Shown here: positions 1,708 through 40,926 of the stretch, in pieces
Layout of the letters: every line of letters begins with the position of its first letter
Position numbering within the stretch: the first letter of the stretch is position 1
From: an uncultured Dehalococcoidia bacterium
GTDB lineage: Bacteria > Chloroflexota > Dehalococcoidia > Lucifugimonadales > CAUZEB01
Length of the DNA: 52,643 nt
Reading direction: 5' to 3'
Assembly: GCA_964431885.1 (NCBI GenBank)
Contig: CAYSLK010000014.1
Coordinates: 1 to 52,643 of the forward strand
Notes under the pieces: generated by a model
Told to the model about the DNA's origin: nothing
Databases searched by the model: none
Seen by the model: only the letters and a program-made list of their open reading frames with translations
Position numbers and translations under genes: made by a program

Positions 1708-2583
1708 ATGTCGTATTTAGCTCTTAGTCTAGTAATATCTTCAGCGTTAATACACCCTATATGGAACTTCCTGCTTAAGCGCGGAAGAAACCATAATATA
1801 TTTATTTGGCTAGCGGCCATATGCAGCGGCATATTGTTTATTCCTCTGGGCATCGTCTTGTATCCACAGCACCCGGTAAATCTGTCAGGATGGTTGTATA
1901 TTACAGGTACCATTATCCTACACGCACTTTATTTTACTCTGCTTGGCCGCAGTTATTCCAAAGCGAACCTCTCATTTGTATATCCAATCGTCCGAGGTTC
2001 AGGTGCTGCACTTGTACCTATATTAGGTGTAATTATTTTTGGCGAGCTTGTCTCTTTAGGAGCTGTATTTGGAATACTCGCCATCGTAGTCGGAATATAT
2101 ACAATATATCTATGGGGTAGAGTTTCCTATATTTTTTACAACCCAGTTCGCATGCTTAATGATCCAGGAAACATATCTGCTATATTAACTGGTCTAACTA
2201 CTGCTGCCTATACTTTATGGGATAAAGCAGGAGTAGCTCATGTGACGCCATTACTCTACATGTACTTTATGTTCTTGGGGACTGGGCTCCTACTATCGCC
2301 TTACATGGTTTTTCGACATGGGGTTCAAGCCATACTAAGGGAACTAAAACTAAATAAGCTGTCAATTTTAGCTGTGGGAATTTTAATGTGCGTTTCTTAC
2401 GGATTTGTATTAAGCGCGTTACAATTATCCAAAGTTAGCTATATAGCTCCAGTAAGGGAAGTTGGCATAGTAATCGGTGTTTTACTAGGTTCACTTTTTT
2501 TGGAAGAGTCTTACACAACAGGTAGAATAATAGGGTCTTTACTGATTGTGTTGGGTGTAGTGTTAATCAGCGTATCACCATAA
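1708..2583 (+). CDS. DMT/EamA family transporter
   Basis: 291 aa, about 10 TM segments, two-repeat EamA pattern (LHPIWN, LSFVYPIVRG, YTLWDK, SYIAPVRE). Confidence 0.85.
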   Translation: MSYLALSLVISSALIHPIWNFLLKRGRNHNIFIWLAAICSGILFIPLGIVLYPQHPVNLSGWLYITGTIILHALYFTLLGRSYSKANLSFVYPIVRGSGAALVPILGVIIFGELVSLGAVFGILAIVVGIYTIYLWGRVSYIFYNPVRMLNDPGNISAILTGLTTAAYTLWDKAGVAHVTPLLYMYFMFLGTGLLLSPYMVFRHGVQAILRELKLNKLSILAVGILMCVSYGFVLSALQLSKVSYIAPVREVGIVIGVLLGSLFLEESYTTGRIIGSLLIVLGVVLISVSP

Positions 2584-2672
2584 ACCTTAGTGTGTTCTAA
2601 ACATTTAGAGGATTCAAGGATTCATTTACTCTAGTTTTGATGACTAATAATTAACCTTTAAATCACAATAAC

Positions 2673-3530
2673 CTAAAGTCCATCGATAAAGGAGAGTTCT
2701 TCTGCTAATTCAGCCTCAGTGTAGTAATGTTCCAAAAGTATTGTCGCATCCAAATATTTAACTGATCTGTGAAATTCGACAGGTAGGGTTCCTTTTCCAA
2801 CCGGCAAATGGGAATCATCTCTACCTCTTACGTCATACAAATAGTTATCACTCCAGTGAACATGTGAAATTAAATCTGGGCGAAACAAAAAGGAATTGAT
2901 TTTTGATTCTCTCTCCTTTGATGGAAATCTGTGCGCATACGTACAGACGTGACTTGTATCTAAGCATAATCGTACATTTTGGCGATCTACGTCTAGGCAA
3001 ATTTGAATCCACTCCTCAGGATGCATGCCAAATGCTTCATTCATAGTAGGCCAATTCACTTCATAGAGCGAAGTTGAAACAGAAATTCCATTAAGTTCCC
3101 AGTAGCTATTTATATTTTCTAGCACTATTTCGATATCATATTTCGCAGCATATTCAGCCAAAATCCTTACAGACTCGATATGTCTTTCATAATCTCCCAC
3201 CTGACCTCTGGCTTGAGTCTCTGCAATCCAACGTTTTAATGCAAAATGCATATTAAACTGTTTTACGTAGGGGAATAAAGAGCATTTATCCAAGTAGTCT
3301 TTGAAAACCGCAAGACTTAAGTCCCGGAATTCGTCGTCAATGGCCGCAATGTTTAATCGTTCTCTTCCTATCATTGTAGGAGCATGTGCACTATACAAGA
3401 CATTTGCATATTCAGGGAACTCTTCGATGTTGTCCCTCAGAGAACTTTCAGCCCTCAGATTGTATTTCTCTATAAGATCCAGACCAGCATTGATTGGTAC
3501 GGCTAAAGGATGTTTTATTTGTGCTGTCAT
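2673..3530 (-). CDS. Xylose isomerase-like TIM-barrel protein (sugar phosphate isomerase/epimerase, AP endonuclease 2 family)
   Basis: Metal-ligand motifs VLEN, CLDTSH, HVHWSDN, DSHLPVGKG, ILLE; ATG at 3530 after AAGGAG. Confidence 0.8.
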   Translation of the reverse strand: MTAQIKHPLAVPINAGLDLIEKYNLRAESSLRDNIEEFPEYANVLYSAHAPTMIGRERLNIAAIDDEFRDLSLAVFKDYLDKCSLFPYVKQFNMHFALKRWIAETQARGQVGDYERHIESVRILAEYAAKYDIEIVLENINSYWELNGISVSTSLYEVNWPTMNEAFGMHPEEWIQICLDVDRQNVRLCLDTSHVCTYAHRFPSKERESKINSFLFRPDLISHVHWSDNYLYDVRGRDDSHLPVGKGTLPVEFHRSVKYLDATILLEHYYTEAELAEELSFIDGL

Positions 3531-34462: not shown

Positions 34463-34843
34463 ATGATGAATCAAAACAACAAAACACCTAGAGATCAAGA
34501 GCGTATCAGATTGTTTTTACACACGGAAGCAATTGCAATCTTAATCACATCTCTCAGTGCATTAAGATCAGAACTAGCACTTGCTGACGAACAAATTAAA
34601 GAACTTCACGCCCCAGAAATAAAAATTCGCATCCCAGATAATCTGTTTCAAAGCTTAGATCCCATTATCGAATCCATATCTACAAGTGTAATGGAACAAA
34701 GTGAACGATATTTTGATGAGAAAAAAGATTTAGAAGGTAAGCAAATATTCCACTCTACAATTCACGAACGCTGGCAATGGCATTCACAACTTATAGAACT
34801 TATGCAGTTGGTTTTGGCAGCAGCATATAGAAAAAACGATTAA
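34463..34843 (+). CDS. Hypothetical helical protein
   Basis: 126-aa ORF, GGGAG RBS, followed by a hairpin; no recognised motif. Confidence 0.65.
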   Translation: MMNQNNKTPRDQERIRLFLHTEAIAILITSLSALRSELALADEQIKELHAPEIKIRIPDNLFQSLDPIIESISTSVMEQSERYFDEKKDLEGKQIFHSTIHERWQWHSQLIELMQLVLAAAYRKND

Positions 34844-34872: not shown

Positions 34873-35050
34873 GTCTCTCGTTCAGCACATTTTTACAGAT
34901 GTTTTATCAACCTTTTAACGTCACATAACTTTTAATCGTAATACCACTCATTGCACCTGATTCCTTATTACTAAGATCATATATATTTGATATCCCTAAT
35001 TCGAACTTTCCGACATAACTATGAGCTTTAATAACTAAACTATAATCCGA

Positions 35051-35079
35051 TTGACTCGCTGTAAAACTTATGATAAGTT
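35051..35079 (+). promoter_or_regulatory. Candidate sigma70 promoter of the selenoprotein gene
   Basis: TTGACT-N17-TAAGTT with an extended TG motif before the -10. Confidence 0.45.
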
Positions 35080-35178
35080 CCAGACAAGTAAGAAATACTC
35101 CATGTGTAAGTCTTACACGCTAATCATGAGAGATTGTTTTCAGTTTTATGAGATTGTTAACTAACTGAGGAGGAAAAT

Positions 35179-35466
35179 ATGGCTACCGGTGAAGGTAAAT
35201 TTGAAGTAGAAATTATTTACTGCGTCCCTTGAGCTCATCTTGGTACGGCGGTCTGGATGGCCTCCGAGATCTTCGCTGAAGGCGGAAAGGATATAGCCAT
35301 GAGGATTACTCCTGGTACAGCTGGAATACTACAGGTTTTTATAGACGGTGACAAAGCATATGATAAGTTAGAAGAAGACGGACAATTCCCGACACTACCG
35401 CGAGTTAAGGAAATACGTGCTCTTGTTAGAGCAAAACTGGATTCTCTTTCATCGAATGCTGATTGA
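35179..35466 (+). CDS. SelW/SelT/SelH (Rdx) family selenoprotein, CxxU motif, 95 aa
   Basis: GAGGAGG RBS, ATG 35179, MATGEGKFEVEIIYCVP-TGA(35230-35232)-AHLGTAVW, in frame with track ORF 35257..35466 (TPGTAGILQVFIDG...GQFP). Confidence 0.9.
35237..35270 (+). promoter_or_regulatory. Putative bacterial SECIS hairpin
   Basis: ATCTTGG/CCGAGAT outer stem, GGC/GCC inner stem, G-containing apical loop about 20-24 nt 3' of the UGA. Confidence 0.6.
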
Positions 35467-35484: not shown

Positions 35485-35527
35485 AAATAAAAAGCTCTAG
35501 GCTGATCCAGCCTAGAGCTTTTTATTT
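35485..35527. terminator. Intrinsic terminator (potentially bidirectional)
   Basis: Perfect 20-bp inverted repeat AAATAAAAAGCTCTAGGCTG-ATC-CAGCCTAGAGCTTTTTATTT. Confidence 0.88.
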
Positions 35528-35588: not shown

Positions 35589-37967
35589 TTGGGCGCCCTA
35601 AACGGTATTACTGTTCTGGATACTACCGATAATATGTCAGGTGCGATAGCTACGATGCTATTATGTGACAACGGGGCTAGAGTTATACATGCAGAAATCG
35701 ACCCTCGCCCTAACTCAAGGGCCGCTCCAAAATATGCAATTTGGGACAGGGGTAAAGAAAAGCTCCATTTGAAGGATTTACATAATAGCCTCAAGGGTGC
35801 TAAACACGGTCAAGTAAGCCTAACCAGACTTTTTTACCAGTTGGTTAAAAGCATTGATGTTTTGGTTACTGACTCAACGGCACCCTTGCATTCTATAATA
35901 GATATCAACTACCAGAAGCTTTCAGCTATTAATCCTCAGTTAATTTATTGCTCTATAACTTCATATGGCGAGAAAGGACCCATACGACATGACTTATCGC
36001 TAGATGACCTAGTTATGGCTCGGACGGGTATTTTATCGTCACAACCCTCCTTTCGGCCAGGTCCTGTACATGTAATCCATCCCTTACCTAGCATAGGGGC
36101 TTCTCTGTGGGCATCCATAGGAATCTCAGCTGCTCTATATGCCCGAGAAAGAACGGGTCTGGGAAGGAACGTAGAAACTTCCCTTATGGCAGGAGCCTTG
36201 ATGTTCTCACCCAAAACGCTCGGTGAACATCTACCAGATTTCTTTTTCCCTAATTCCCCGGCAGGAGGTGGACCTTTCTATAGCTTATATGAATGTGCAG
36301 ACGGAGAATGGATTCACTTAGGCTGTATCCATGGAGGGTTTATTGATGTTGCGATATCAGTCATGGGCATAGCTCATTTAATGACAGAACCTAGATTCGG
36401 CGAGGGAAGGGATCCGGATTCCGAAGACTCTAGACGAGAACTGTTTGAAATAGTCAGAGAGGTCATAAAGACTAAGTCGTTCAACGAATGGGAAGCCTTA
36501 TTTGAAGATGCTGATGTTCCATTTGCCAAAGCATGCACAACAGACGAAAGTATGGACAATCCTCAAGTTCAATTTAATGATATGGTCGTAAAAATAAAGG
36601 ATCCAATGCTTGGGGATATGCTGCAAATGGGCAATCCGATTAAATTTAGCGAATCACCCGGTGACATTAGAAATGGCAGACTTTTACCTAATAAGCAGAC
36701 ATTGGAGGATCTTTCAAAGGCTATCTCAATTAAAAACATCCCTAGCAGTAAGACTAATAAGATTAGAGGAGATCAACTTCCAGCCCCTTTAGAAGGGGTA
36801 AATGTAGTCGAGCTAACTAATGTAATTTCTGGGCCGATGGCAGGCAAAATTTTAGCAGATATGGGTGCTAACTGTATCAAAGTGGAACCTCCTTATGGTG
36901 ACATTTCGCGTGCAGGCGGATCTGAGTTTTTCATCCATCTGAATTCCAATAAACGTTCCATTTGCTTGGATGCGAAGACCGATTCTGGAAAAGACGTATT
37001 ACAAAAGTTAGTTTCCAAGGCAGATGTTATCCTTGATAACATGCGTCCGGGCACTGCAAGTCGTCTGGGTGTTGGACATGAATCGATAGCGAAGCTTAAT
37101 CCTAAGATAATTGAAACTCACATCACCGGGTATGGCTCATATGGACCATATTCTCAAAGACCGGGTGTTGACCCTCTGGCCCAAGCACTAATGGGGCTGC
37201 ATAGAGCCCAAGGAGGAACAGAAAACCCGCCCGTCTTTTTGGGAAAACTAGCACCTACTGACTTTGCTTCGGGATCACTCGGAGCCCTAGGTACCGTCAT
37301 GGCTCTGTTTTATAGAGAGAGGACAGGAACTGGTCAATCAGTGGAAACCAATCTTTTAAATGCCGGAATATTACTTAGTTCAGAGAGTTTCAGCAGATAC
37401 GAAGGGAAGCCAGAGAGAATTCTTGCAGACAGAGGTCAGCACGGACTCGGTGCTTTACATCGCCTGTACCAAACAAATGATGGTTGGATTTACATGATCG
37501 CAAGTTCGGAAAAAGAATTATTGGCCCTGTCTGAGATTATTAGCTTAGATAAATCATCGAAGAAGTACAACCTTCCCGATTTCAAAAATTTGGCGGATTT
37601 AGGCACCACCTTAACTCAAAAACTGTCTGATATATTTCGCGGTTACAACTCCAATGACTGCTTGCAATTGCTGCACGACGCTGGAGTTCCTTGTGCACCC
37701 GTCATTTCCAACTATGGGATAGGATTTTTTTCTGACCCTCAGGCAATCTCAAACAACATGATTATAGAACATCATCACAGAACGTTCGGCAAGCTTAGAC
37801 TCTCACATAATCTGATCGTCTTTGGAGCTACGAAGGAGATATGTGCTAAACCAACACCACTTCTCGGAGAACATTCCGCAGAGATATTAGAGGAATCAGG
37901 ATTCTCCGATATCACAATCAATAGGATGTTCGCAAATAAAACAATAAAAACAGATTACACTTACTAA
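35589..37967 (+). CDS. Family III CoA-transferase (CaiB/BaiF) with two fused domains
   Basis: 792 aa; two copies of L.G..V....GA..I..E.P, NP..I...IT.YG..GP; NSNKRSICLD, DNMRPG, PLLGEHS. Confidence 0.9.
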   Translation: MGALNGITVLDTTDNMSGAIATMLLCDNGARVIHAEIDPRPNSRAAPKYAIWDRGKEKLHLKDLHNSLKGAKHGQVSLTRLFYQLVKSIDVLVTDSTAPLHSIIDINYQKLSAINPQLIYCSITSYGEKGPIRHDLSLDDLVMARTGILSSQPSFRPGPVHVIHPLPSIGASLWASIGISAALYARERTGLGRNVETSLMAGALMFSPKTLGEHLPDFFFPNSPAGGGPFYSLYECADGEWIHLGCIHGGFIDVAISVMGIAHLMTEPRFGEGRDPDSEDSRRELFEIVREVIKTKSFNEWEALFEDADVPFAKACTTDESMDNPQVQFNDMVVKIKDPMLGDMLQMGNPIKFSESPGDIRNGRLLPNKQTLEDLSKAISIKNIPSSKTNKIRGDQLPAPLEGVNVVELTNVISGPMAGKILADMGANCIKVEPPYGDISRAGGSEFFIHLNSNKRSICLDAKTDSGKDVLQKLVSKADVILDNMRPGTASRLGVGHESIAKLNPKIIETHITGYGSYGPYSQRPGVDPLAQALMGLHRAQGGTENPPVFLGKLAPTDFASGSLGALGTVMALFYRERTGTGQSVETNLLNAGILLSSESFSRYEGKPERILADRGQHGLGALHRLYQTNDGWIYMIASSEKELLALSEIISLDKSSKKYNLPDFKNLADLGTTLTQKLSDIFRGYNSNDCLQLLHDAGVPCAPVISNYGIGFFSDPQAISNNMIIEHHHRTFGKLRLSHNLIVFGATKEICAKPTPLLGEHSAEILEESGFSDITINRMFANKTIKTDYTY

Positions 37968-38046: not shown

Positions 38047-40926
38047 TTGGATAAAAACGTGACATCAGACGAGCAAAATAGAGATATCATAGCTCCTGCC
38101 AAACTTCCACTGGTTTTATTAGGTATTGCTATAATTCTTGTAATAGTATCGCAAATACTTGTGCGTCACTTCGCTCCCGCTTGGGTAATAACACCTCTTG
38201 TAGTCGCTGCAATACTTGTTTCATTAGTTGTTTCGGGAAAGAAGTATCGCGAATTAGACAAAATTAACACCATCAGCGATCGAATCACCTATTCTAAACC
38301 TAATAAATCCAGAATGTTGGAAAACAAACTCGGACTAGTATTTACTTCTCTGGGCGCGCTCTTCTTACTCATTTCACTTTCTCGGTTTCCCGTAGGGCCA
38401 CCCTACATCTTAAGTTGGTTATGCTACAGCGTGGCTATGGCATGTATCCTCCTTAGTCTCCCAACATTTGACGGAGGCTGGACTAAATTCATTAGATATA
38501 TTTCACAGGGGAAAGTTATCACCCTTAATCTTAAAGACCTTCCAATTTGGGTTGCATTTGGGCTGATATTATCTGTGGCCTTAGCACTCAGACTTTACGG
38601 ACTTCAAGATCTTCCGGCGGGTTTTTGGTATGACGAAGCCGCGAATTTAAGTATCGCACAGCAAATACAAGAAGACCCAAGTTCCACACCCGTATTCTCT
38701 AGAGTTATTCCAATATTTTATCTCGTTCCCACAGCCATCCTTATTAGCATATTAGACGTCACACCATCTTCAATACGGGTAATCAGTGTGGCTTTCTCTA
38801 TCTCTGGAATAGTCTCTTTATTTCTCCTCGCAAGATTCATATTAGGTACCTATCCGGCATTACTTTCGGCCTTGATATTGAGTGTAATGAGATGGGACAT
38901 TAACTTTAGTAGAATTGGTATGGCCCCAATAACAATGACCTTTACTACAACCTTGGCGGCCTATCTCACCCTAAGGGCTCTAGAGAGAGGACGTGTTTCT
39001 GGCTATGGATACGCAGGAGCTTCATTGGGCTTCGGGTTTTGGTTTTACAGTTCTTTCTACATTTTCCCCATTGTAATTGGATGCATTGTAATTCACCATA
39101 TCTTCACTAAACGTCCTGAAATCAAGCCCTTTGTAGGTAAATTAACTTTTATGATCACAATGGCCATATGTATAGGGGCCCCAGTTGCCCAATATGCTGT
39201 CCTTAACCCAGATTCCTTTTTCTCAAGAGTCGAATCCACCAGTGTGTTTACAGAAGGTCCCGTGAAAGAAAGCTTAGTTGATATTAAATCCGGCTTTATG
39301 AAACATGCTCTGATGTTTCATTCAAGAGGCGATCCCAATCCCCGGCACAACCTACCAGGATCCCCCATGCTTGATTTTGTTTCGGGAACTCTCTTTATCC
39401 TAGGTCTAATTGTCGCCATATTGAAATGGAGAAATATCGGCCTATTCTGTCTCCCATTGTGGCTTTTTATAATGATCCTGCCTGGGGTACTAACCATCCC
39501 AGGGGAAGCTCCTCAAGCCCTGAGGTCTATAGGCGTTACTCCAGCTGTAGCTATACTTATCGCGATAGCCATCTATACCATATGGTTAACAGGACGTTCC
39601 GCCGAATGGATTATTGTAAGGAAAGCAACTCCTTTTATAACCATCTTATTTCTGGGAGTTATTGCAGTGAGTAACATTAACACTTATTTTCATACCCAAG
39701 CTAATCATCCTGATGTATTCTCATTATTTAGTACTGATGAAACATTGATCGGAGAACACATGCTGGAATTACAGCAAAAGGGTTACAGCATGCTAGTTTC
39801 TGGTCAATTCCAACACAGCCTAAACAGATCACTGTTTGCAAATGAACCACGTGTCGATGTGATTAAAGGACCTGAATCGATACCAATTCACACAAGCTCG
39901 GTTTGGTTGGGAGCATCTGTCTATCTGGAACCCAGAGAGGAAAATCTCTATCATCTTCTACAACTTTATTATCCTGACGCACAATTTAGGGAAATTCGTC
40001 CGCCTAACGGAAAGGATATTTTATTCTATTCAGCAGTTATTAGCAGAGAACAACTTGAAGCAAGACAAGGATTAACAGCCATATATACTTTCCGCGACAA
40101 CTCTGTTAAAGAAATGATACAAAGAAATACGGAGGCTATTTGGCTTACTGAATTCAAATCGGAAGACATGCCTATTAGTCTATTATGGAAGGGTTCCATA
40201 CATATTAACACTCCTGGTGAATACTCATTCATTCTAGAAGGAACAGCCGATGTCGATGTCATTCTAAACGGTAGAAAACTTCTGGATAAGCGAAAAAGTA
40301 TCGCCCATATCAAGCCTGCTATCGGCCTTCACTCAATACTTGTGACAGGACGCTTACATACTAACAATGACCGTTTTAGAGTACTCTGGCACCCACCAAA
40401 TGGCGAAGTCACAGCTATCCCGACTGAACATCTCTATCATGGCACGATTCGCCCAATGGGCTTATCTGGACGGTTTTACACTCTGCAGGGAGATTCTACG
40501 GCCGCTCTCAACTTGATTACAACGAAAGTTCCAGACGCCACCGTCCTGACACCATCCATGGATGCATTCTGGTATACCCCTGTAGTCTCTACCCCTTACA
40601 TTGCAACCTGGGAAGGCTCATTAAACGTTAATAAAAGCGGTGTTTATACATTTCAGGTTAATGGCACTGGAAAGATAAAGTTGACCATAGACGGGTTCAT
40701 TAATTTGGAACATCCTCCAACAAATAGCATTGCATCAGAAAAAAGATTGACTTTAAAAGCAGGTGAGCACCAAATACGAGTAGATTACACTTCTCTTAGC
40801 CCGCCATCTCGTTTCGAAATTTTATGGGCTAAGTCAAATGAAGAATTAAAACCCATACCCATCAGAGACCTCTCACCCAACTTAGACCACTTATTCAGTA
40901 TACTGGAAAGTCGGGCAAAGGATTAA
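38047..40926 (+). CDS. GT-C (PMT/ArnT-like) membrane glycosyltransferase with C-terminal PA14-like domains
   Basis: LALRLYGL...GFWYDEA, INFSRIG, RGDPNPRHNLPG, many TM segments; two WxGxxxxxxxGxYxF beta-rich repeats at the C-terminus. Confidence 0.8.
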   Translation: MDKNVTSDEQNRDIIAPAKLPLVLLGIAIILVIVSQILVRHFAPAWVITPLVVAAILVSLVVSGKKYRELDKINTISDRITYSKPNKSRMLENKLGLVFTSLGALFLLISLSRFPVGPPYILSWLCYSVAMACILLSLPTFDGGWTKFIRYISQGKVITLNLKDLPIWVAFGLILSVALALRLYGLQDLPAGFWYDEAANLSIAQQIQEDPSSTPVFSRVIPIFYLVPTAILISILDVTPSSIRVISVAFSISGIVSLFLLARFILGTYPALLSALILSVMRWDINFSRIGMAPITMTFTTTLAAYLTLRALERGRVSGYGYAGASLGFGFWFYSSFYIFPIVIGCIVIHHIFTKRPEIKPFVGKLTFMITMAICIGAPVAQYAVLNPDSFFSRVESTSVFTEGPVKESLVDIKSGFMKHALMFHSRGDPNPRHNLPGSPMLDFVSGTLFILGLIVAILKWRNIGLFCLPLWLFIMILPGVLTIPGEAPQALRSIGVTPAVAILIAIAIYTIWLTGRSAEWIIVRKATPFITILFLGVIAVSNINTYFHTQANHPDVFSLFSTDETLIGEHMLELQQKGYSMLVSGQFQHSLNRSLFANEPRVDVIKGPESIPIHTSSVWLGASVYLEPREENLYHLLQLYYPDAQFREIRPPNGKDILFYSAVISREQLEARQGLTAIYTFRDNSVKEMIQRNTEAIWLTEFKSEDMPISLLWKGSIHINTPGEYSFILEGTADVDVILNGRKLLDKRKSIAHIKPAIGLHSILVTGRLHTNNDRFRVLWHPPNGEVTAIPTEHLYHGTIRPMGLSGRFYTLQGDSTAALNLITTKVPDATVLTPSMDAFWYTPVVSTPYIATWEGSLNVNKSGVYTFQVNGTGKIKLTIDGFINLEHPPTNSIASEKRLTLKAGEHQIRVDYTSLSPPSRFEILWAKSNEELKPIPIRDLSPNLDHLFSILESRAKD

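Follow-up and report, generated by a model that had tools for sequence, protein, structure and literature searches.

Selenocysteine (Sec) insertion in bacteria is established to proceed through SelB which, together with Sec-tRNA(Sec), is recruited by a hairpin. SelW proteins adopt a thioredoxin-like topology of the form b1-a1-b2-b3-b4-a2. SelW-like proteins with a CxxU motif are described in the surveys by Zhang, Gladyshev and co-workers (2005, 2008) as the most abundant marine selenoprotein family. In the GOS data, the SelW-like family is represented by 427 Sec forms, from 40 samples, and by 56 Cys forms, and a later marine survey assigns 11.3% of the selenoprotein genes to it. Reviews place the SelW-like proteins, with their CxxU motif, under PF10262, and SelW has been reported to interact with glutathione (PMC1088965).

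The gene analyzed here is located in a window (the whole stretch of 52,643 nucleotides under study) that corresponds to contig C14 of a 2.06 Mb assembly consisting of 187 contigs (95.7% complete, with an estimated contamination of 6%). Judged from its sequences, the bearer of the gene is a marine SAR202-type Dehalococcoidia bacterium. Positions 35179-35466 very probably encode a 95-residue SelW-like (Rdx) selenoprotein of marine SAR202 in which the UGA codon at 35230-35232 is decoded as Sec.

The reading frame and its product

The gene (35179-35466, + strand) is a frame of 95 codons, including a single in-frame TGA at 35230-35232, that is followed by a TGA stop. The ATG start codon (35179-35181) is separated by a 5-nt spacer from the Shine-Dalgarno-like sequence GAGGAGG (35167-35173, + strand); most of the 30 loci compared below likewise have a GGAGG-like motif within the 20 nt that precede the inferred start. 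The frame has TGC (35221-35223) as codon 15 and TGA as codon 18; the translation around them reads EIIYCVP-TGA-AHLGTAVWMASE, with the CVPU redox motif encoded by TGC GTC CCT TGA (35221-35232, + strand). The complete selenoprotein frame comprises MATGEGKFEVEIIYCVP, the TGA at 35230-35232 and then AHLGTAVWMASEIF, and stays open up to the second TGA at 35464-35466. The earlier note, which was made from the letters of the window, had pointed to a strong ribosome-binding site in front of an ATG at 35179, to an in-frame TGA at the fourth position of a CxxU motif, and to continuation of the frame into an Rdx-like C-terminus, and all three observations hold: GAGGAGG is located 5 nt 5' of the ATG, codon 18 directly follows YCVP, and the open part of the frame is covered by a family match. 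The ORF list for the window contains just a 69-aa piece of this gene (35257-35466, + strand), the stub produced by ordinary ORF calling.

The read-through protein matches the Pfam family Rdx (PF10262) with an E-value of 7.3e-12 and a score of 45.8 bits (cut-off 22.6); the match covers residues 9-84 of the protein and positions 1-73 of the 74 in the model. A six-frame search of the genome detects this Rdx copy alone. Two NCBIfam models gave scores below their cut-offs, narrowly in the case of TIGR02174 (CXXU_selWTH; 31.4 vs 34.2) and by far for NF041051 (SelTWH_Campy; 30.2 vs 88), and the gene is therefore not filed under either of them. These scores may be part of the reason why the gene is left unnamed by annotation pipelines.

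A profile made from 28 orthologs matches the solved structures 2oka (E 6.9e-13), 2ojl, 2fa8, 3dex, 2obk and 2p0g (E-values up to 2.8e-11), as well as mouse SelW (2npb, E 0.0048), and in the profile alignment CVPU is superimposed on CTQC of the Cys-type proteins 2oka and 2ojl. The AlphaFold model, which was built from a 28-row alignment with Cys replacing Sec, has a pLDDT of 92.8 and a pTM of 0.84 and contains the elements E8-15, H21-38, E39-46, E51-55, E58-62 and H73-92, that is, b1-a1-b2-b3-b4-a2, with C15-V-P-U18 placed between strand E8-15 and helix H21-38. In a Foldseek comparison, the matches listed among the first 22 ranks are all bacterial SelW-related proteins, with 2oka, 2fa8, 3dex, 2ojl, 2obk and 2p0g among the best (E about 1e-6, TM 0.66-0.74, 26-34% identity), or mouse SelW (2npb, rank 22, E 1.4e-4, TMq 0.69, 16% identity), with thioredoxins coming next. 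Assignment of the 95-residue product to the Rdx/SelW family is supported by sequence, profile and predicted fold alike. The 69-residue stub, by contrast, would begin at Met27 within helix a1, lacking strand b1 and the redox motif.

The internal UGA codon and its decoding

A six-frame search of 60 relatives (one from the same genus and 59 from the same order, each representing another genus) yielded matches in 47, of which the best 30 loci, namely the window and loci from 29 genomes, were compared; weaker second matches, possibly paralogs and in some cases devoid of TGA, lie outside this column comparison. YCVP is followed by TGA in 28 of the 29 loci from relatives (29 of 30 with the window) and by TGC in one, L029 of genome G053. 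In the protein alignment A2, which excludes L035 and L048 (their matched stretches overran a stop), no variation is seen at C15, V16, P17 or the TGA/Cys column. The pairing of Sec with Cys at this column is seen in L029, in P0002 and L081 (both YCVPC) and in the solved relatives (CxxC). A scan of species-representative genomes produced 24 loci, and YCVP-TGA is present in all 19 that are labelled Dehalococcoidia, Chloroflexota or SAR202; this set overlaps the 29 relatives' loci (L056 equals L027 in protein), and the two are not independent. The Firmicutes-labelled loci L075-L079 were dropped as chance C-terminal matches that show no such CxxU/C motif. Among 200 other genomes sampled from the phylum, 14 contain a match at E <= 1e-8, one of which, G036, belongs to the same order and has Cys; TGA occupies 14 of the 16 places found in this sample, and no match was obtained in its 19 listed genomes labelled as the same class. 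The alignment of homologs proposed in the earlier note accordingly comes out in favor of the selenoprotein, with TGA in 28 of 29 loci of the order and 19 of 19 named loci.

Two Cys-containing genomes merit separate mention. G036, which is 97% complete, lacks selB, and its SelW-like gene has YCVPC, that is, Cys in place of Sec. G053 possesses selB, and its Cys form still retains the letters of the hairpin that is described below.

Across the 30 loci, the nine codons on the 5' side of the TGA vary little at their first and second positions (mean entropy 0.36 and 0.29 bits, respectively) and almost only at the third (1.29 bits). The inferred start is separated from the TGA by 13-22 codons in 29 loci and by 24 codons in L048. 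Given this third-position bias, the upstream starts and the GGAGG-like sites, the stretch before the TGA is therefore translated.

The machinery for Sec decoding is encoded in the same assembly, with selA (531.6 bits), selB (341.8), selD (371.1) and tRNA-Sec (70.2) all above their cut-offs, albeit on contigs C144, C138, C47 and C156 of the MAG and not on C14; the tRNA-Sec has the anticodon TCA according to ARAGORN, which finds no tRNA in the window. The selD gene is of the Sec type, with one in-frame TGA in SCAGUASK. This selD, itself a selenoprotein gene, is located on the minus strand of contig C47 of the window's genome (G000, locus L014, around 2380-2390). Of 61 genomes of the order (G000-G060), 53 have a selB above the curated cut-off, which indicates that the use of selenium is general in this group. 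The earlier note had conjectured that the organism decodes selenocysteine and had proposed a genome search for selA, selB, selD and tRNA-Sec; the presence of all four, including tRNA-Sec(UCA), supports the conjecture. It had also considered a genome devoid of Sec machinery in combination with relatives that all carry TGC or TGT; what is found is the machinery, together with TGA in 28 of 29 loci.

A bSECIS-like hairpin follows the UGA (35246-35266, + strand), with stems 35246-35248/35264-35266 and 35250-35253/35259-35262 and the loop UGGAU (35254-35258), which corresponds to Trp-Met codons. The helix 35246-35253/35259-35266 consists of seven pairs around a C.U mismatch and has an energy of -9.4 kcal/mol alone and -10.5 kcal/mol in context. 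The rules for bSECIS elements, as given in the bSECISearch model (PMC13188914, legend of Fig. 2A), call for a loop of 3-9 nt with a G among its first two nucleotides, for 4-16 bp in the upper stem, and for a distance of 16-37 nt between the UGA and the loop together with a minimum free energy of at most -7.5 kcal/mol; in the 35246-35266 register, the hairpin agrees with all four bSECIS rules. Across the 30 loci, 76.3% of the cells are paired in the 8-position helix and changes on both sides occur at five of the eight positions (12 cells); in none of 500 shuffles was this level of pairing or of covariation attained. Sliding the register always lowers the score, and the shift by -3 comes closest, with 67.5% of the cells paired. 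The window's own minimum-energy fold, which adopts another register with a 7-bp lower stem, has 70.6% of the cells paired in the 30 loci; its lower helix is 62% paired and contains no double changes, and this fold is ranked below the 8-position helix.

As a single sequence, 35220-35300 folds no better than its shuffles (z 0.19; 104 of 200 shuffles are as good), and the case for the hairpin therefore rests on comparative data. RNAalifold returned only three pairs for the 30 loci, in another register and with -2.44 kcal/mol, and a search of the whole window against Rfam at gathering thresholds gave no matches and therefore no curated RNA family over the hairpin. The loop letters are set by the invariant Trp-Met codons, which makes RNA and protein constraints inseparable there, and the exact structure is ambiguous given the pairing levels of the -3 register and the minimum-energy fold. 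On the comparative evidence, we take the hairpin after the UGA as real, with an ambiguous register.

Sec insertion and the redox chemistry of the SelW-like protein, both of which we infer from these data, would take the following course. SelB with Sec-tRNA(Sec) would be recruited by the hairpin, which begins 13 nt downstream of the UGA, its apical loop lying at a distance of 21 nt. The true stop would be the second UGA, which lacks a hairpin of this kind and precedes a strong terminator. The product is a small thioredoxin-like protein with Cys15 and Sec18 between b1 and a1; these two residues most likely cycle between the selenol/thiol and selenenylsulfide states, and the protein would act as a thiol-dependent oxidoreductase.

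Three other readings of the internal TGA have to be weighed against this one. The TGA could be a nonsense mutation or a sequencing or assembly error in a Cys-type Rdx gene, which would then be a pseudogene, and the TGC in the ortholog L029 of G053 and the public 92-aa Cys form P0002 indeed make a Cys ancestor or variant possible. Such an origin is nevertheless extremely improbable, considering that relatives of different genera share a TGA at this column in 28 of 29 loci, that purifying selection is apparent on both sides of it, and that the genome encodes the full Sec machinery; one systematic error common to independent MAGs and complete genomes is implausible. Moreover, the same letters recur in RNA libraries: contigs from four metatranscriptome libraries (four studies) match the window without a mismatch over 35178/35179-35419, 35195-35384 and 35186-35374, and all of them bridge the TGA. 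These contigs may stem from DNA and do not give transcript ends; they mainly exclude an assembly error.

It is also very unlikely that translation ends at the UGA and yields a peptide of 17 residues, the 69-residue ORF that starts at Met27, or both. This is what the ORF caller and the database entries present, and conservation of Met27 places an ATG equivalent to 35257 in 29 of the 30 loci; however, the 69-aa piece starts in the middle of helix a1 of the model, no GGAGG-like site precedes 35257, the 17 upstream codons vary synonymously while the encoded protein sequence is conserved, and the orthologs each carry an RBS and a start of their own, 13-24 codons upstream of the TGA. Just as slim is the chance that the UGA is read through without Sec, by near-cognate insertion of Cys or Trp or by a general reassignment of TGA. 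TGA terminates 8 of the 41 stop-to-stop frames of at least 200 codons in the window, and there is therefore no general reassignment; the solved relatives have Cys at this column, the genome has selB and tRNA-Sec(UCA), the hairpin agrees with the SelB-dependent model, and TGA also occupies the canonical Sec site in selD of the same genome.

Flanking signals and gene neighborhood

An intrinsic-terminator-like hairpin (35485-35527, + strand; 20 bp, loop ATC, -29.5 kcal/mol) begins 19 bases past the stop codon. Its G+C-rich core, 35493-35504/35508-35519, is formed by AGCTCTAGGCTG and CAGCCTAGAGCT and is followed by the T-run TTTTATTT (35520-35527); the sister genome retains the stem. This terminator escaped the pattern scan, as its T-run is base-paired with an A-run on the 5' side. 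The claims of the earlier note on flanking signals fared differently: the strong terminator proved to be present, whereas the candidate promoter of the gene did not find support, as the pattern scan detected no sigma-70-like site upstream of the gene on the + strand. Below the scan criteria, a perfect TATAAT is located at 35041-35046, and TTGACT (35051-35056) and TAAGTT (35074-35079), separated by 17 nt, amount to 8 of 12 matches by eye. The block that contains TATAAT and TTGACT-TAAGTT (35041-35079, + strand) is identical in the sister genome and lies approximately 100 nt before the start codon. The 340-nt upstream spacer as a whole is 87% identical to that of the sister genome, which is about the level of the neighboring genes (83-88% protein identity) and therefore is uninformative on regulation.

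The upstream neighbors in the window encode enolase, GAPDH, a SLOG-family protein, a DUF503 protein and an unnamed 126-aa ORF; in other loci, the upstream neighbors vary and include a helicase, an ABC permease, a 2-hydroxyacid dehydrogenase and a DUF503 protein. The 126-aa ORF (34463-34843, + strand) has no Pfam family and is 85% conserved in the sister genome and 55% in the MAG locus L057. On the other side, the 959-aa protein encoded at 38047-40926 (+ strand) combines a PMT_2 glycosyltransferase domain with a C-terminal PA14 domain, and L037, L048, L058 and L070 also have PMT_2 genes in the vicinity of the SelW-like gene.

Directly downstream of the SelW-like gene and on the same strand is a gene for a fused double-domain family III CoA-transferase of 792 aa (35589-37967, + strand). 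The same arrangement is found in 12 of the 29 genus-level loci (11 by Pfam and L041 by tblastn only) and in 10 of the 19 named MAG loci, that is, in 22 of 48 loci from overlapping sets (L027-L031, L033, L038-L041, L045, L054, L056, L057 and L062-L069), but in none of the 15 loci from more distant Chloroflexota. The window's genome contains 12 CoA-transferase III domains in only 10 genes, and chance adjacency is therefore unlikely. The strong terminator lies between the two genes in the window. A conserved two-gene unit of the SelW-like gene and the ~790-aa double CoA-transferase in this SAR202 order, as might be suggested by gene order, appears doubtful. The downstream pairing itself may be a new observation; a literature search for SelW together with CoA-transferase returned nothing related by title. 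If functional, the pairing would offer a first clue to the physiology of this selenoprotein family, the most abundant one in marine data, and might, for instance, reflect redox care of the CoA-thioester enzyme or of CoA itself.

In the sister genome G001 (L027, 2159-3285), the CoA-transferase is split into two overlapping frames, 2159-2671 and 2548-3285, which suggests a frameshift or an assembly error, and the intergenic spacer of this locus has about 40 extra bases compared to the window.

Annotation and comparison with known selenoproteins

The truncation to 69 aa that the earlier note had predicted for standard annotation is what public collections contain, in the form of P0003, a 69-aa entry that is 100% identical to the stub and whose longest contig has 52,643 bases, as the window does. 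The public protein collection gave 29 matches: 27 stubs with lengths of 63-71 aa, the stub of the window itself, and a single full-length protein, the Cys form P0002, with 92 aa and YCVPC. Two of the stubs are named 'predicted Rdx family selenoprotein' by JGI. Stubs without the active site make the counts of redox proteins and of selenium use too low in SAR202, a major deep-ocean lineage. No literature that links SAR202 to selenoproteins was found in the searchable library, and lineage-wide selenium use in SAR202 may be under-reported, which is a point of annotation rather than of mechanism. The value of the present case is in annotation, the gene being cut at the UGA by gene callers; nothing in it is new in kind.

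The SelW-like gene belongs to a long-known family and has the long-known CxxU form, and is not a discovery. With the SelW-like selenoproteins of the Sargasso Sea and GOS data it shares the CxxU motif, the Pfam family Rdx (PF10262, formerly pfam05169) and the marine habitat. The prevalence of Sec (427 vs 56 Cys forms in GOS, TGA in 28 of 29 loci here) and a hairpin after the UGA with G in a small apical loop are common to both as well. There is no difference in kind, the present copy coming from SAR202, the subfamily of which is characterized by an invariant YCVPU...W motif and scores just below the TIGR02174 cut-off. Compared to the bSECIS consensus, the hairpin has the 5-nt loop, the 4-bp upper stem with 3 additional bp, GG from loop position 2 and the 21-nt spacing in common, whereas the window's own minimum-energy fold departs from the rule in having the Gs at loop positions 3-4.

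The Cys-type proteins 2oka, 2ojl, 2fa8, 3dex, 2obk and 2p0g, which were deposited as hypothetical or SelW-related proteins, share the order of the secondary structure elements and the place of the redox motif with the SAR202 protein but contain CxxC where the latter has CxxU. Mouse SelW (2npb) resembles it in both the fold and the CxxU site, although the identity is only 16%. In eukaryotic SelW, the SECIS is located in the 3'-UTR (PMC13188914), whereas in the present gene the hairpin is in-frame, directly 3' of the UGA.
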